Shown: one piece after another, positions 32,961 through 38,018 of the stretch
Layout of the letters: each line of letters starts with the position of its first letter
How positions within the stretch are numbered: position 1 is the first letter of the stretch
Source of the DNA: Chloroflexota bacterium
Lineage (GTDB): Bacteria; Chloroflexota; Limnocylindria; QHBO01
Assembly (NCBI GenBank): GCA_040905185.1
Contig: JBBDRZ010000007.1
Location: 408,206 to 472,205 of the forward strand
Reading direction: 5' to 3'
DNA length: 64,000 nucleotides
The notes under the pieces: generated by a model
Database searches by the model: none
What the model was told of the DNA's origin: nothing
Seen by the model: only the letters and a program-made list of their open reading frames with translations
Translations under genes and position numbers: made by a program

Positions 32961-35117
32961 CTACGGCTGCGCTTCGGATTCGGGGAGCTTTGCGTTTCGG
33001 GAGTTGAACGCGACCCGGAAGAGTCGATATTCGCGGACGCCCTCGGCGGCGAGCACGGCGGAAAGGACCACTGTTTCGGCGGCGAGGATCCATCCGATCG
33101 CAGCCGGGACCAGGAGCGCGGCCGCGACTGGCACCAGCACCAGGACAAGCGCACCCACGACGGCAACCGTGACGCCCGATGAGGTTCGGCCGGTGATCTT
33201 CCTGGTTGCGACCAGCGTGCTCTGGGAATCTTCGGTGCCGGCGAAGGTCGAGCCACCGCTCGAGAGGACCGCGAGGCTCAGCATCGCGAGGAAGCCGCTG
33301 CCGAGCACGTAGGCCGTGGCGAGCATCGGACCGTGGGCGAGCCACACCACGGCAAAAGCCGCGCCTGTTATGAGGACCACCAGCGCACCGAGCGCATACC
33401 ACGGCAATGTCCAAAGCGGCCGTCGAATCCCTCGGAAATAGGTGGTCTCGTCCGCCCCCATGAGCGCGTTCCACCCCAGGCTGACCGGCAGCCAGGCGAG
33501 GACGCCCAGGACCGCCACGCCGATGAAACCGGCGAGGACGACCACCCATTCGGGAGGCGCGTCGAAGAACGCGTCGACCAGGGGGAGGTTGAGGGCGCTC
33601 ACGAACTCGATCAGGCCGCTTCCGAAGGCGGGGGTCAGCCAGGCGTAGACCCATCCGGCCACGACGGCGCCGCCCACGAACACCCGCATGGTCAGCAACA
33701 GGAGAACGCGCGCGTGCCGTCGCATGGCAGCTACCTGGAGTCGCGGATCCGTCAGTGGTGCCGCGTACGCCTTCGGGCCGCCGAGCGCGAACAGGCGTGA
33801 GGCCACGATGGCGACGAACTCGGTGGTGTTCCTCCAGTAGACGACGTGATCCCAGATTGTGGAGGCGAGGTTTCGGATCTTGTACGAGCGGATCTGCTTG
33901 CCGGCCACGTCCAACGGCCCCACCGGCGCCGGGTCCGCCGATGCCCACAGGTCCAGCCACTCCAGTCCCGGCTCCACCGCAACCACCTTCGCCCAGTCCG
34001 ACTCGATGTCCTCCCCGGATTCGGTCCAGATGCGTCTGGCGGAGTTGAGCAGGGCGAATTCGGCGATGACGGCGAGGAGAACGGGGACGGCGATGAGCGG
34101 CCAGGGAGCCGCAGCCAAGAACGTCAGCCCTGCTACCACGAGGAAGGCCGCACTGCCGATGGCAGACAGCGTCTGCACTGCCGTCTGGGACCCCCGCGCC
34201 ATGGTCAGGACGAACGTGAGCTTCCGCACCGCCTGGCCGTAGGTGACGAACAGACCGATGGGCGCCGGCTTCGGCGACCCCTCCTTGGGGGCAGCCGGAC
34301 GATCGGTCAGCTCATGCTTCAGGGCGTACCACGATACGGCTGTCCCCTGGGAGTGGGCGACCACGGCGACGGTGGCGCATTCGCGGAGCAGGACCTGCAG
34401 GTCTGACCGCACCTGGGTTGCCATGGCGCCGAAGCGGATGGGGCTCCGGGTCAGGACGTAGGCGTCTCCGAACCCGTTCGCCAGGCCTCGCTGCAGCGAG
34501 CGGGCGAGGTCCGCCATGAAGGGGAGCCGGGTGATCGCGAGCAGGACGAGGGCCAGGGCGAGCGCGGTGACCACCAGCCCCATGATCGCCGCTCCCAGCA
34601 GCATGACCGTGCCGGCGAGGAGCGTGACCGGGATGAGCGCCAGGCGGAGAAGCCGGGGGACCGATTCGCCGATTTCCATTCGGTTCACGATGCCCGCCAC
34701 CTGGGTCGCAAAGACCCACGGTCCGACGGTGACCGCCCATCCGGCCAGCTCAGCGTAGGTTGCCGGTCGGAAGACGTCAGCCCACGAGGATTCGGCGACG
34801 ATCCAGTGTGCCGGCGCGCCCGTGCCGGTCGGCGGTGTGATCCGGACCACCGCATGAGCGGTCGGTATGCCATCACTGGATACCTGCCGAAGGGCGACGT
34901 CGAGCACGTCCACCCCGGCGCCGCCGGGCCCTCCCGGGCTCTCAACTCGGCGCCTGAGCCATCGGAAGATGTAGTCACCCTCCTCGGTCAAGGTGTCGCC
35001 GCGCATCTGCTCGCCGATGCCGTGGACGAGAAGGATCCCGAGGTTGTATTTGCGCCGGAGCCCGAGTCGCCGGCGACTGTCCTTGATCCCCTCGTCCAGC
35101 TCAGCGGATTGCAGCAT
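32961..35117 (-). CDS. Large polytopic membrane protein with alpha/beta-hydrolase (lipase-like) signatures
   Basis: The start at MLQSAELDEG.. gives 718 aa. LGILLVHGIGEQ and VAVVAHSQGTAVS (a GxSxG-type elbow) are separated and followed by many TM helices. No family name recognised. Confidence 0.6.
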   Translation of the reverse strand: MLQSAELDEGIKDSRRRLGLRRKYNLGILLVHGIGEQMRGDTLTEEGDYIFRWLRRRVESPGGPGGAGVDVLDVALRQVSSDGIPTAHAVVRITPPTGTGAPAHWIVAESSWADVFRPATYAELAGWAVTVGPWVFATQVAGIVNRMEIGESVPRLLRLALIPVTLLAGTVMLLGAAIMGLVVTALALALVLLAITRLPFMADLARSLQRGLANGFGDAYVLTRSPIRFGAMATQVRSDLQVLLRECATVAVVAHSQGTAVSWYALKHELTDRPAAPKEGSPKPAPIGLFVTYGQAVRKLTFVLTMARGSQTAVQTLSAIGSAAFLVVAGLTFLAAAPWPLIAVPVLLAVIAEFALLNSARRIWTESGEDIESDWAKVVAVEPGLEWLDLWASADPAPVGPLDVAGKQIRSYKIRNLASTIWDHVVYWRNTTEFVAIVASRLFALGGPKAYAAPLTDPRLQVAAMRRHARVLLLLTMRVFVGGAVVAGWVYAWLTPAFGSGLIEFVSALNLPLVDAFFDAPPEWVVVLAGFIGVAVLGVLAWLPVSLGWNALMGADETTYFRGIRRPLWTLPWYALGALVVLITGAAFAVVWLAHGPMLATAYVLGSGFLAMLSLAVLSSGGSTFAGTEDSQSTLVATRKITGRTSSGVTVAVVGALVLVLVPVAAALLVPAAIGWILAAETVVLSAVLAAEGVREYRLFRVAFNSRNAKLPESEAQP

Positions 35118-35300
35118 TCCGCAGAGCCTAACAGCGGCCGGTTGAGCCCACGGCCCGCCGGCCGCCACCGGAGAGCGGGACGACGACCTCTCGGTTCGAG
35201 GGCGTGTTTCGCAGCTGGACCGATCCGTGTCCAGATTGATGATACTGTAGCCTCGACCTCCAGGGATCTCCGGGGGCTCTGGAGGGATGCGGGGTAACTG

Positions 35301-35579
35301 ATGCCTGTCGTGACGCGGGTCAGGAAGGTCCAGGCACCAGACGGCAGGCACGAGCACATTGGGGGTGTGTGCACGGCCGACGGCACGTATTTCTCACGTC
35401 AGCAGGTCGCGGCCGCGATAGACGCCGGGGAAGCGTGGTGGTCGGAGGGCGCGGGCACACGAGCGCGCATCCGCAAGGCACCCTATTGCCCGTACTCCGA
35501 GTGCCTGACCTTTCCGTACCTGACCACGGCACCGGACCACACCACCGCGAATAACCTGGAGAACCTCCCAGGATGCTGA
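35301..35579 (+). CDS. DUF3892-like small protein
   Basis: GRHEHIGGVCTADGTYFSRQQVAAAIDAGEAWWSEG..YLTTAPDHTTANNLENLPGC. Confidence 0.65.
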   Translation: MPVVTRVRKVQAPDGRHEHIGGVCTADGTYFSRQQVAAAIDAGEAWWSEGAGTRARIRKAPYCPYSECLTFPYLTTAPDHTTANNLENLPGC

Positions 35580-35641
35580 ACGGAGGCCGGGCCGCATGCC
35601 GCTGCTATCTGTGGGGGATCAGGTCTTGGTCGGGCGCCGGC

Positions 35642-35761
35642 TTATGGCCAGCCGCCCTTGTCGTTGTCAGCCAGGACGGTGGCCACCGAGGCCAACGCCA
35701 TGAGCACAGCAAGTGACCACGCAAAGACAATGGGACGGATCTTTCGGATCCAGGTAGCCAT
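35642..35761 (-). CDS. 39-codon ORF encoding a signal-peptide-like pre-peptide, not in the ORF track
   Basis: MATWIRKIRPIVFAWSLAVLMALASVATVLADNDKGGWP*. SD GGAAGGAG lies 7 nt upstream. A possible signal-peptidase site (VLA|D) would leave DNDKGGWP. Confidence 0.45.
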   Translation of the reverse strand: MATWIRKIRPIVFAWSLAVLMALASVATVLADNDKGGWP

Positions 35762-35836
35762 GGGCCGGCTCCTTCCCGGCACGCCTCATGGCCCGGCCCC
35801 CGATTCGAGGGGTCGCACAGGCGACCTCTGGGCGCC

Positions 35837-35866
35837 AGCGTATGTGGGCGATTCGGCGGGTGTCAA
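35837..35866 (-). promoter_or_regulatory. Sigma70-like promoter for the small pre-peptide ORF
   Basis: Minus strand has TTGACA (plus coordinates 35861-35866), then 18 nt, then TACGCT (plus coordinates 35837-35842), roughly 70 nt upstream of the ATG at 35761. Confidence 0.4.
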
Positions 35867-35908
35867 GTATTTATATAGTCGTGGGGCCGTTGTGGGTCGG
35901 CCCGGGAA

Positions 35909-35930
35909 TCAAGTGGCGGTATAGTCGCGG
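35909..35930 (+). promoter_or_regulatory. -10 element placed for a leaderless XRE-TPR transcript; second copy of a 22-nt direct repeat
   Basis: TATAGT at 35920-35925 lies 7 nt before the ATG at 35933. TCAAGTGGCGGTATAGTCGCGG repeats TCAAGTATTTATATAGTCGTGG at 35863-35884. Confidence 0.4.
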
Positions 35931-35932
35931 CG

Positions 35933-37255
35933 ATGGGCGCAGTCCGGTCGACCCGGCGCAAGGCCCGGGTCGTCAACGTGGTCAACAATCGGCCGCTGGC
36001 GCAGGCCATTGGCGCGAACGTGCGCCGCCTGCGGACGTCGGCCAACCTCACCCAGCGCCAGCTCGCACAACCGCGCTATACGCCGGCCTACGTCAGCGCG
36101 CTGGAGAACGGCCTGGCCAAGCCGTCCATGGCTTCGCTCCACTACTTCGCCGAGCGGCTGAGGGTCCCGATTGGGGCGTTCCTCCCTCCCGAGCCTGGCC
36201 AGGCGGACCGGTTGGAGGCGGATCTCCGACTCGCGTCGGGCGACTATGAGAGTGCGTTGTCGGCATATCGGAGCCTGCTCGAGCAGGCGGCCGGCGAGCG
36301 AGCTCGGGCGGAGATCCTGCGTGGCATGGCCGAGAGCCTGTGCCGGCTGCGGCGCGGAGCCGAGGCGATCGGTCCCGCAGCGGAGTCCGTGGCGATTCTC
36401 GAGCGGCTACCTCGGGCCGCCGATGAGGCCTATGCGAGCTACTGGCTGGCGTATGCCCACCAACTAGCCGATAACTCGCCTGAGGCGCGCGCTATCCTCA
36501 AGTCGCTGCTGGATCGCGTCCGCCAAGGTTTGGACGTGCTCCCGGACTTCAAGTTCCGGGTCCTGGTGGCGCTTGCCAACGTCGAGGGCTGGGAAGGGGA
36601 ACACGACCGAGCGCTCGCGTATCTGGAGGAAGCCAGAGGCCTGGTCGCCGACCTCGATGAGTTCCGGCGGGCGACACTCCTGTGGAACCTGTCGCGCAGC
36701 TACGGAGACGTCGGTGATGATGAGGCCTCGTTCCGTTCGGGGAGCCAGGCGCTGGGGATCTTCCAGGTGCTGGAGGCGAAACAGGAGGTCGCGTCGCTCG
36801 AAAACACGTTGGCCTTGACCATGCTCCGGCTTGGCAATCTCGCCCGGGCTCGCGAGTTCGCGGACCAGGCCCGTCAGCATGCCGACGTGATGCCGGCAGC
36901 CACCTTCCTGCCCCATGTGCTGGACACCGAGGCTCAGATTGCGCTGGCCCGGGGGGAACCTGAGTTGGCGCTGGAGAAACTGGCGGAAGCGGCGCGAGAT
37001 GCCGAGGGTGGGAGGAATCCAGAGGCTGCGGCCGCGATTCACCACACCCGCGCCCGCGCACTGGCCGCGCAGGGCCAGGCAGATCAGGCGGTGGTCGAAT
37101 ACGACCAGGCCGCGCAGGCGTATCGGGATCTTGGCTTCACCGGCCGCCTGCGGCCGGTGCTCTCGGAATGGGCAGAGCTGTATGGCCAGATCGGCAAGCC
37201 GTCCGAGGCGGTCGAGCTCTACCGCGAGGCGCTGGCCCTCAAGCCGCGACGGTAG
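35933..37255 (+). CDS. XRE-family HTH regulator with a C-terminal TPR domain
   Basis: AIGANVRRLRTSANLTQRQLAQPRYTPAYVSALENGLAKPSMASLHYFAERLRV is the HTH_XRE part. It is followed by ~350 aa of TPR-like helical repeats. Confidence 0.85.
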   Translation: MGAVRSTRRKARVVNVVNNRPLAQAIGANVRRLRTSANLTQRQLAQPRYTPAYVSALENGLAKPSMASLHYFAERLRVPIGAFLPPEPGQADRLEADLRLASGDYESALSAYRSLLEQAAGERARAEILRGMAESLCRLRRGAEAIGPAAESVAILERLPRAADEAYASYWLAYAHQLADNSPEARAILKSLLDRVRQGLDVLPDFKFRVLVALANVEGWEGEHDRALAYLEEARGLVADLDEFRRATLLWNLSRSYGDVGDDEASFRSGSQALGIFQVLEAKQEVASLENTLALTMLRLGNLARAREFADQARQHADVMPAATFLPHVLDTEAQIALARGEPELALEKLAEAARDAEGGRNPEAAAAIHHTRARALAAQGQADQAVVEYDQAAQAYRDLGFTGRLRPVLSEWAELYGQIGKPSEAVELYREALALKPRR

Positions 37256-37304: not shown

Positions 37305-38018
37305 CTAGCCGACCAGGCGTGCCGTCACGCGGCCGTCAGGGGTGACCGACACCGCGGTCGGCACCAGGACGATTCCGTATTTACGCGCTAGCTCGGGACG
37401 CTCACGGACATCCACGGTCACCAGCCGACGGCCATCGGCTCGGAAGTCGTCGATCATGTCGCGGCAGTCCGTGCACAGCGGATGGCTGAAGGCCACCACC
37501 AGCTCGCCATCCAGCGGCAACTCGGCGCCCATGTCAGCCAGCTCGATGCGGTCGAACTGCTGGGCACGGATTCCGCGCAGCCGCGCGCCAATCCGGTACA
37601 TCTCGCAGCCCACGCACAGCCCGGTGCTGGCGGCCAGCAGGGCCAGCCCGGCGACCAGCACGCCGAGCGCCGCGCCCAGCGTCGTCAGTCCAATCGCGTA
37701 GGCGACGGTGGCGGTGCCCAGCACCACCAGGCCGACCTGGTTGGCGAAGCGGGGCGGGCGACTGTCCTCGATCGGTCCTTCGCCGATGCGCGGCTGGACC
37801 AGTTCGAAATAGGCCACACAGGCCACGCAATAGCGGCGTCCGAACCGAAGCCCGATCGCGAGTTGGAGCGCGAGGAGGGCCAGGATCGGCCACCACCCGG
37901 TGAGCACGGCGACCACCGAGAGGCTGCCGATGGCTGCCTGGTTGAATCGCGGCGCACGGGCGTCGATGACGTCGAGGTCGCGGTAGGGATCTGCGGTTCG
38001 AACGACGGGAGTGGGCAT
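37305..38018 (-). CDS. DUF4395 membrane domain fused to a thioredoxin-like domain
   Basis: APRFNQAAIGSLSVVAVLTGWWPILALLALQLAIGLRFGRRYCVACVAYF.. is the membrane part. The C-terminal part is VVAFSHPLCTDCRDMIDDF..VTVDV..ELARKYGIVLVPT. Confidence 0.7.
   Translation of the reverse strand: MPTPVVRTADPYRDLDVIDARAPRFNQAAIGSLSVVAVLTGWWPILALLALQLAIGLRFGRRYCVACVAYFELVQPRIGEGPIEDSRPPRFANQVGLVVLGTATVAYAIGLTTLGAALGVLVAGLALLAASTGLCVGCEMYRIGARLRGIRAQQFDRIELADMGAELPLDGELVVAFSHPLCTDCRDMIDDFRADGRRLVTVDVRERPELARKYGIVLVPTAVSVTPDGRVTARLVG

Follow-up and report, generated by a model that had tools for sequence, protein, structure and literature searches.

The 64-kb stretch of DNA considered here (hereafter, the window) belongs to a member of Candidatus (Ca.) Limnocylindria, within Chloroflexota, and carries two adjacent genes on opposite strands that may constitute a peptide-sensing cassette resembling the RRNPP systems. 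The larger gene (35933–37255, plus strand) was delineated from its open reading frame (ORF), Pfam matches, an AlphaFold2 (AF2) model and family alignments, and it encodes a 440-residue regulator in which a helix-turn-helix (HTH) domain, matching the Pfam families HTH_31 and HTH_3, precedes a series of tetratricopeptide repeats (TPRs) that match several TPR families. The smaller gene (35642–35761, minus strand) comprises 39 codons and a stop, extending from the ATG at 35761–35759 to the stop codon at 35644–35642, and its product is MATWIRKIRPIVFAWSLAVLMALASVATVLADNDKGGWP. The Shine-Dalgarno (SD) sequence GGAAGGAG (35769–35776, minus strand) is located 7 nt before this ATG; an alternative GTG-started reading of 46 residues exists, and an SD is present only at the ATG. 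Both genes, including the strong SD and its spacing, are present as described in the original prediction, which was made from the DNA letters alone; the divergent arrangement also stands, with the start codons separated by 171 bp rather than the 172 bp given there. The small ORF has no match in Pfam, and an identical 39-residue protein is already deposited in the public protein collection (P0134).

The pairing of the two genes was followed across relatives of the regulator. The protein search returned 524 relatives among the candidates scored; the best 120 span 98% to approximately 44% identity, and wherever these carry an organism name it is Chloroflexota or Limnocylindria. The closest species-representative loci are metagenome-assembled genomes (MAGs) of Ca. 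Limnocylindria, with regulators 83–87% identical to that of the window. The locus set comprised 90 related loci (5 from genomes, 80 from metagenomes and 5 from long contigs), which the window brings to 91. A peptide profile derived from the first peptides seen was run on all stop-to-stop segments of at least 25 amino acids, in six frames, of all the loci and the window. It yielded 62 matches with an expectation value (E) below 1e-3, followed by matches in all three of the loci added later, i.e., in 65 of the 91 loci, and every one of these adjoins the regulator gene on the opposite strand. The peptide gene of the window matches the profile with E 6e-17 and has orthologues in L001–L003, L006–L009, and L086. 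Elsewhere in the loci and the 64-kb window (approximately 0.4–0.5 Mb, six frames), there was no further match at E < 1e-3, and none below E 0.3.

When the 12-codon ORFs described below are included, a peptide gene stands beside the regulator in 77 of the 91 loci and always on the opposite strand, with approximately 49 divergent genes, 16 convergent genes located just beyond the stop codon of the regulator, and 12 divergent ORFs of 12 codons. Of the 14 loci without a peptide gene, 13 are cut by a contig end within approximately 230 nt of the expected site (two of them retain the promoter box and one retains the first 22 codons of the peptide gene), and the remaining locus encodes a Gaiellaceae protein that is 28% identical. 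The reading frame, the SD, the A-x-A site and the aromatic-Pro end are all kept among regulators that are only 45–50% identical. The small ORF is therefore a real gene, far beyond chance, and the conservation beside orthologous regulators that the original prediction had named as its first check is borne out. Adjacency and co-inheritance, which are characteristic of the propeptide genes of RRNPP(A) systems, are found here in the 77 loci and in a peptide tail type that tracks the regulator tree. The flanking genes vary between loci, no third gene is conserved, and a DUF3892 neighbour is confined to the clade of the window; since the neighbours are variable, the pair behaves as a self-contained module.

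The build of the peptide is that of a secreted propeptide. An alignment of 43 distinct peptides displays an invariant Arg that closes a basic n-region, a hydrophobic stretch of approximately 20 residues, and an invariant Ala at position −1; in at least 90% of these 43 peptides, a Pro occurs at position +8 after the invariant Ala, and the residue before this Pro is aromatic, mostly F, W or Y. Among 164 distinct peptides, most have V, A, G or T at position −3. Substrates of signal peptidase I follow the rule of small residues at −3 and −1, and the product of the window combines such residues with the positively charged n-region and the hydrophobic h-region of Sec-type signal peptides. The predicted signal peptide comprises codons 1–31 (35669–35761, minus strand), with the n-region MATWIRKIR, a hydrophobic core and the c-region V-L-A, which is followed by D. 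Cleavage at this point would release the predicted mature octapeptide DNDKGGWP, encoded by codons 32–39 (35645–35668, minus strand), in agreement with the 8-residue distance from the invariant Ala to the aromatic-Pro across the family. The signal-peptide-like N-terminus and the short polar tail after VLA|D, noticed originally in a single sequence, are thus recovered in the family alignments.

Two types of tail are distinguished in the family, namely tails of exactly 8 residues ending in W-P, to which the window belongs, and tails of at least 9 residues ending in [FYWML]-P-[RHK], sometimes with 2–3 extra residues. Within the clade of the window, the variants DNGKGSWP, DNDKGSWP, DNTKGSWP, and DNSKGSWP occur beside DNDKGGWP. 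In 58 of 61 family loci, the peptide gene is preceded at 6–10 nt by an SD of the AGGAG/GGAGG type. When the public protein collection was searched with a peptide profile (45 residues in the first row of the query alignment) among entries of similar length, 260 small proteins of the family were retrieved, of which the best 120 are mostly 37–45 residues long; all the named ones among these 120 are labelled "hypothetical" or carry a generic label, and they come from Limnocylindria or Limnocylindrales with a single Patescibacteria exception. This exception (P0196) is the peptide MRTTRILRTLMVAGTAAALSILSIVSTVMAATGGGDFPRLR, deposited under a MAG of "Patescibacteria group bacterium"; since all other named members are from Limnocylindria, the label is probably a binning or labelling error.

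One clade of regulators was provisionally taken to be without a peptide gene, a view which was overturned when the length filter of 25 amino acids proved to have hidden an ORF of 12 codons. This ORF has an SD and lies at the divergent position; it keeps the tail and has neither the hydrophobic segment nor a signal peptide, its products being MRSAHTGGGWPS, MRHASTGGGWPV, MRTASCGGGWPR, MRDCSTGGGWPF, and MRRASTGGSWPS. It is present in all 12 loci of its clade with enough flanking sequence, and a scan of both strands of every locus revealed no other copy. The clade is the sister of the clade with GGGDFP tails, with a support of 100/100, and this placement implies that the loss of the signal peptide is derived. 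Deletion of the hydrophobic segment with retention of the tail and of the gene position indicates that the tail is likely the functional unit, and, judged from these sequences, points to the tail rather than a membrane helix as the part that matters.

This bears on the proposal, put forward in the original prediction as an equal alternative, that the small ORF encodes a single-pass membrane protein. In such a micro-protein, the helix would be functional, e.g., as the partner of a transporter or protease or as a membrane tether for the regulator, and the tail would be incidental. The hydrophobic stretch of approximately 20 residues has the length of a transmembrane segment and is strongly conserved within clades, in the clade of the window even at synonymous sites, which speaks for such a protein. 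Between clades, however, this segment shares only its composition, whereas the A-x-A site and the aromatic-Pro end persist; moreover, the invariant Ala at −1, the mostly small residue at −3 and the fixed 8-residue spacing to the aromatic-Pro count against a functional membrane helix, as does the existence of an entire clade in which the hydrophobic segment has been lost and the tail retained. The membrane micro-protein is thus weakened from an equal alternative to an improbable one.

The loci of the 12-codon clade also display a conserved palindrome, GTCAA-N7-TTGAC, immediately after the stop codon of the regulator (L034, 3772–3960; the same in L036, L045, L050, L052, L053, L054, and L065). 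On its 3' side lies a TTGACA-N18-TAGGCT promoter on the plus strand, with approximately 150 nt of near-invariant sequence containing the hairpin GGGATCGGAG..CTCCGATCCC. From its sequence, this near-invariant stretch is a candidate for a small RNA or for a target transcript of the regulator.

Selection on the peptide gene was assessed from the proportions of synonymous (pS) and nonsynonymous (pN) differences, clade by clade. In the GGGDFPR clade, pS is 0.37 for the peptide gene and 0.54 for the regulator gene, and pN/pS of the peptide gene is 0.38; in the convergent clade with ..WP tails, pS is 0.62 for both genes and pN/pS is 0.53; and in the ..YP[HR] clade, pS is 0.56 for the peptide gene and 0.58 for the regulator gene, with a peptide pN/pS of 0.39. 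In these three clades, the peptide gene thus shows the pattern of a protein-coding sequence subject to purifying selection. In the clade of the window, however, pS is approximately 0.11 for the peptide gene and approximately 0.43 for the regulator gene, and the peptide pN/pS of 0.63 reflects synonymous sites that are abnormally conserved. The Ka/Ks check that accompanied the original prediction is accordingly uninformative for the clade of the window alone and gives 0.38–0.53 in the other clades. Across the nine loci of the window's clade, codons 11–31 (about 35669–35731) are nearly invariant and codons 11–22 are invariant, with nonsynonymous changes falling in the n-region, the late h-region and the tail. 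A part of the 5' untranslated region (UTR) of the peptide mRNA (35787–35816, minus strand) is likewise hyper-conserved, with a column identity of 0.96 among the 9 orthologous loci compared with 0.85–0.90 in flanking coding DNA.

Such conservation at the nucleotide level would be expected if the locus encoded a type I toxin-like small hydrophobic peptide or a dual-function RNA, with RNA–RNA pairing as the source of the constraint. The convergence of the peptide gene with the DUF3892 gene, which makes antisense read-through possible, and a short discrete RNA contig that covers the gene would also suit this explanation. This contig, from a metatranscriptome of sediment (run X25), is 178 nt long, is 97% identical to the window and spans 35631–35800; it contains the small gene with a leader of approximately 40 nt and 11 nt past the stop codon, ending one base beyond a GC-rich hairpin over the stop codon (GGGCGGCTGGCCATAAGCCGGCGCCC; 35632–35657, minus strand). 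The hairpin, taken from an alignment fold with no covariation, may form the 3' end of a short transcript. No contig of run X25 covers the regulator or the DUF3892 gene, and this single assembled contig from a relative lends weak support to a short, relatively abundant transcript of the peptide gene. On the other side, nothing in the window reached the gathering thresholds of Rfam, and the region yielded no more than a sucA-II match at the level of chance (E 1.3); the fold energy is no better than that of shuffled sequences (z −0.18), and 0 of 71 predicted pairs display a compensatory change, so that a conserved RNA structure is not what accounts for the hyper-conservation. The other clades have normal synonymous divergence, and type I toxins are neither paired with HTH-TPR regulators nor equipped with an A-x-A site and a conserved short tail. 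We regard the toxin or RNA explanation as very improbable.

Upstream of the peptide gene, the promoter (35837–35866, minus strand) consists of a −35 element, TTGACA (35866–35861), an 18-nt spacer and a −10 element, TACGCT (35842–35837), and is conserved in orthologues. The original prediction had termed it canonical-looking; the sequence is as stated there, but the −10 element matches TATAAT at just 3 of 6 positions, and for this reason a consensus scan for promoters and terminators between 35500 and 36000 called none. In most clades, the peptide gene is preceded by a T-rich stretch or AATA followed by [CG]-TTGA-[CT], then by 17–18 nt and a −10 element of the form TA[CG]nnT. This holds for the convergent loci as well, in which the peptide promoter with its box is far from the regulator's own promoter.

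The family-specific box AATACTTGAC overlies the −35 element (35862–35871, minus strand). The 64-kb window contains no second match to AATASTTGAY, with 0.01 expected; this singularity implies that it is not a general promoter motif of the organism. The motif occurs in 48 of 87 loci, as a single copy in 46 of those, and mostly on the strand of the peptide gene at the peptide promoter; it was also found in three loci added later. Given that the HTH is the best-conserved region of the regulator family in the alignment and that the box lies at the peptide promoter, the box is most simply interpreted as the operator of the regulator and, on these sequence grounds, is regarded as a candidate operator. 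The box is contained in the first copy of a 28-nt direct repeat (family D1, spacing 46), CGGGTGTCAAGTATTTATATAGTCGTGG (35857–35884, plus strand), which is conserved in orthologues. The second copy, CGGGAATCAAGTGGCGGTATAGTCGCGG (35903–35930, plus strand), is degenerate, is seen in the clade of the window and includes TATAGT at 35920–35925, i.e., 7 nt before the ATG of the regulator. From this position, the mRNA of the regulator would be leaderless, and the regulator may control its own gene.

The AF2 model of the regulator, computed from an alignment of 110 sequences, reached a mean predicted local distance difference test (pLDDT) of 91 and a predicted template modelling score (pTM) of 0.76. 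It comprises a five-helix HTH of the XRE type at the N-terminus (residues ~20–83), followed by 18 helices that form approximately nine TPR-like repeats, the architecture of a cytoplasmic RRNPP(A) receptor. Pfam places HTH_31 at residues 26–79 and HTH_3 over the HTH region to approximately residue 81, followed by several generic TPR families (TPR_12, E 2e-20), and neither a signal peptide nor a transmembrane segment is apparent in the sequence. No RRNPP-specific Pfam model, including those specific to Rgg or ComR, matched the regulator at E <= 0.1. The NCBIfam matches are all sub-threshold, the best being to the NsdA-family TPR regulators (NF053720), which scored 32.8 bits against a cut-off of 75 over residues 328–438 only.

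Structural comparison with Foldseek against the PDB placed peptide-binding TPR scaffolds at the top ranks (LGN/Pins, E 4e-9). The PlcR chain in the complex with PapR7 and DNA (3u3w_A) followed at rank 21, aligned over the whole chain in 279 columns with E 8e-8 and a TM-score of 0.64 by target; further matches include PlcR–PapR (2qfc) and several Rap–Phr complexes (4gyo, 6t46, 8rsv), with Rap appearing from rank 32. By sequence profile, the best match is kinesin light chain (2e-13), and matches were also obtained to the HTH of PlcR (3e-10), to the TPR region of NprR (5dbk, 1e-6; 4gpk, 4e-5), to RapH (1e-6), and to the HTH of ComR (5fd4, 2e-5). The modelled fold thus has the appearance of an RRNPP receptor; a common origin with Rap, NprR, PlcR, PrgX, Rgg or AimR is neither shown nor excluded by these comparisons.

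A maximum-likelihood tree of 66 regulators revealed that the gene arrangement and the tail type are both clade-specific, so that the peptide and the regulator have diversified together. The tails ..GSWP, x-P-x-P-WP, and P-P-[VIY]-P-[RK] occur in the half of the tree that contains the window, and GGGDFP-R(xx), GGGT-x-[YF]-P-[HR], and the 12-codon GGGWP-x occur in the other half. The tree leaves out the loci with GSGGPP-[FMLW]-P-[RHK] tails, in which the regulator reading is broken. Receptor columns that track the C-terminal class of the peptide (..WP versus ..P[RHK]) were sought and set aside as evidence, since phylogeny accounts for the best of them. Lower-clade members with peptides that do not have the basic end retain the acidic residues at positions 203 and 292, and charge complementarity between peptide end and receptor yielded nothing beyond phylogeny. 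One position was observed apart from these: residue 169 (window 36437–36439), which precedes the invariant Y170–W171, is R or K in all members of the window's half with a peptide ending in P-[RK] and is S, N, G or A in all those with W-P. From its sequence pattern, it is a candidate specificity position that may represent an independent association, confounded by phylogeny.

These results can be compared with a one-way circuit, in which the regulator controls the adjacent gene and the secreted peptide is an effector or a signal read elsewhere, e.g., by a membrane sensor, another organism or a metal, with the TPR domain sensing something else. This circuit would equally predict the gene pairing, the box at the promoter and the features of export, as well as all other results except the co-diversification and the leaderless variant; furthermore, the top structural matches are generic TPR scaffolds, and no convincing specificity-determining contact was found, the contact between the peptide and the TPRs being inferred. 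It is weakened by the co-diversification of the tail type with the regulator clade, by the movement of the cassette as one block through unrelated contexts in which no third gene is conserved, and by the 12-codon leaderless variant, which still lies beside its regulator and fits poorly with an effector that acts only outside the cell. Taken together, the one-way circuit is considered the main rival, possible though less likely than the reading favored below.

The reading that we favor, with a probability of roughly one half (0.5), is that of an RRNPP-like receptor/propeptide cassette of uncultured Ca. Limnocylindria, in which the peptide would be re-imported and bound by the regulator. In the proposed mechanism, the promoter of the small gene would give rise to a short mRNA, and the strong SD would direct translation of the 39-residue pre-peptide. 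The Sec pathway would export the pre-peptide, and signal peptidase I would cut after V-L-A to liberate the octapeptide DNDKGGWP. This peptide would accumulate outside the cell, re-enter it, probably through an oligopeptide permease, and bind the concave face of the TPR superhelix of the regulator. Binding would then alter the occupancy by the XRE-type HTH of the AATACTTGAC box on the −35 element of the peptide promoter, and perhaps also of the degenerate second copy on the leaderless promoter of the regulator, resulting in a feedback loop.

Several observations weigh against this interpretation. Generic TPR proteins (LGN/Pins, kinesin light chain) outscore every RRNPP receptor, and this ranking, together with the lack of a match to RRNPP-specific Pfam models, leaves common ancestry with RRNPP receptors unproven. 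The RRNPP-like pair of the original prediction is upheld in part, as a conserved cassette with a propeptide build. The low pS in the clade of the window implies that a constraint other than the protein acts on the DNA, and, within clades, the hydrophobic segment varies less than is usual for a segment that serves export alone. The 12-codon peptide has no export signal and may act inside the cell, at least in its clade. The outcome for charge complementarity also counts here, as does the fact that cleavage, uptake, peptide–TPR binding, binding of the box and the direction of regulation are steps that we infer from the arrangement and build of the two genes.

A wider proposal, held more tentatively, is that Limnocylindria possess a large undescribed family of cytoplasmic peptide-pheromone receptors, composed of an XRE-type HTH and approximately nine TPRs, each with a cis-encoded propeptide whose ligand would be a C-terminal x6-[FWY]-P core. 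Such a family would comprise many "pherotypes", switches between divergent and convergent arrangements, and one lineage with a 12-residue leaderless peptide, and would represent either a deep sister of the RRNPP systems of Bacillota or an independent invention.

The genomic surroundings of the cassette differ among relatives. In the window, the DUF3892 gene (92 amino acids; 35301–35579, plus strand) is convergent with the peptide gene and is kept there in all close orthologous loci, although not in more distant clades. Next to it, a gene on the minus strand (32961–35357) encodes 798 amino acids from the first GTG, with many hydrophobic segments and no Pfam or NCBIfam match; in L086, a gene for 794 amino acids, also without a Pfam match, lies further off with inserted genes between. 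On the other side, convergent with the regulator gene, a gene at 37305–38018 (minus strand) encodes a 237-residue protein with a DUF4395 membrane domain (E 2e-28) and a weak C-terminal thioredoxin-like region. In L087 (5095–7017 and surroundings) and L086 (57–6272), the cassette lies among genes of the defence-island type, including an OLD-like TOPRIM/AAA_15 nuclease, SIR2_2, RAMA/HSDR_N and many small ORFs of no known family, which suggests that in some relatives the cassette is located in variable accessory regions. A phage link was considered and dropped, as a scan of viral contigs for the regulator family gave no relative; from the viral contigs and the variable chromosomal contexts, no link to mobile elements was found.

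In the literature searched, RRNPP systems are described for Bacillota only (PMC10075063; PMC9765709). The search retrieved no description of RRNPP or peptide quorum sensing in Chloroflexota or Limnocylindria, and no published account of the cassette, in line with the statement of the original prediction that systems of this type are not known to be established in high-GC lineages. The present loci, from MAGs of Ca. Limnocylindria and Chloroflexota, fall outside the range of Bacillota and mobile elements. Quorum sensing by peptides that act on cytoplasmic TPR receptors is regarded as a hallmark of Bacillota and of their phages and plasmids. If Limnocylindria possess the receptor family of the wider proposal, RRNPP-type quorum sensing would not be confined to Bacillota and would extend to an abundant uncultured class of soil and sediment Chloroflexota, and the cassette family would bear on whether the origin of RRNPP systems is ancient or convergent. 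The cassette also offers simple testable reagents for organisms not yet grown, namely 8-residue synthetic peptides, one soluble regulator and a 28-bp candidate operator. The 12-codon variant without a signal peptide represents a natural experiment, in which a secreted signal could have become intracellular or come to be exported differently.

Among known systems, NprR–NprX of the Bacillus cereus group shares with the cassette a receptor of similar size composed of an XRE-type HTH and approximately nine TPRs, and a propeptide of approximately 40 residues with a Sec-type signal, from which an active peptide of 7–8 residues arises, comparable to the octapeptide predicted here. NprR has approximately 420 amino acids, and nprX lies downstream of nprR on the same strand, whereas the genes of the cassette lie on opposite strands; furthermore, active NprX is internal to the pro-region rather than at the extreme C-terminus, the host is a member of Bacillota rather than Chloroflexota, and the regulator is no more similar in sequence to NprR than to generic TPR proteins. 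PlcR–PapR, also of the Bacillus cereus group, likewise combines an HTH and TPR protein with a box at promoters, the corresponding box here being a candidate operator. PlcR is an activator that binds a palindromic box at target promoters, including that of its own peptide gene, and PapR is a propeptide with a signal peptide, whose C-terminal heptapeptide is the signal. However, PlcR has 5 TPRs in approximately 285 amino acids, compared with approximately 9 TPRs in 440 amino acids here, the gene order and strand differ, and the palindromic PlcR box contrasts with the cassette box AATAsTTGAC, whose upstream half is variable.

The streptococcal systems Rgg–SHP and ComR–ComS/XIP resemble the cassette in the short peptide gene that adjoins the regulator on the opposite strand, divergently or convergently, and in the C-terminal part as the active or conserved unit. 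In the SHP/Rgg groups, the C-terminal 7–9 residues are active, and the SHPs are hydrophobic and are processed by Eep and PptAB. The 12-codon leaderless variant parallels ComS and SHP, both of which are without a Sec signal, whereas the peptides of the cassette mostly combine a canonical Sec signal and an A-x-A site with a tail that is polar and rich in Gly and Pro. PrgX–PrgQ of the Enterococcus faecalis plasmid pCF10 also has divergent receptor and peptide genes with closely spaced promoters. The PrgQ signal consists of the C-terminal 7 residues of a small precursor, and PrgX is borne by the plasmid and controls conjugation, a location that differs from that of the cassette, for which no mobile-element link was seen. 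The cassette differs from all these systems in its phylum, in the Gly/Pro-rich tail with a fixed aromatic-Pro end, in its candidate operator, and in having no detectable specific homology to them. By analogy, its receptor architecture and propeptide type appear closest to NprR–NprX and PlcR–PapR, and its gene layout and leaderless variant appear closest to Rgg–SHP and ComR–ComS.

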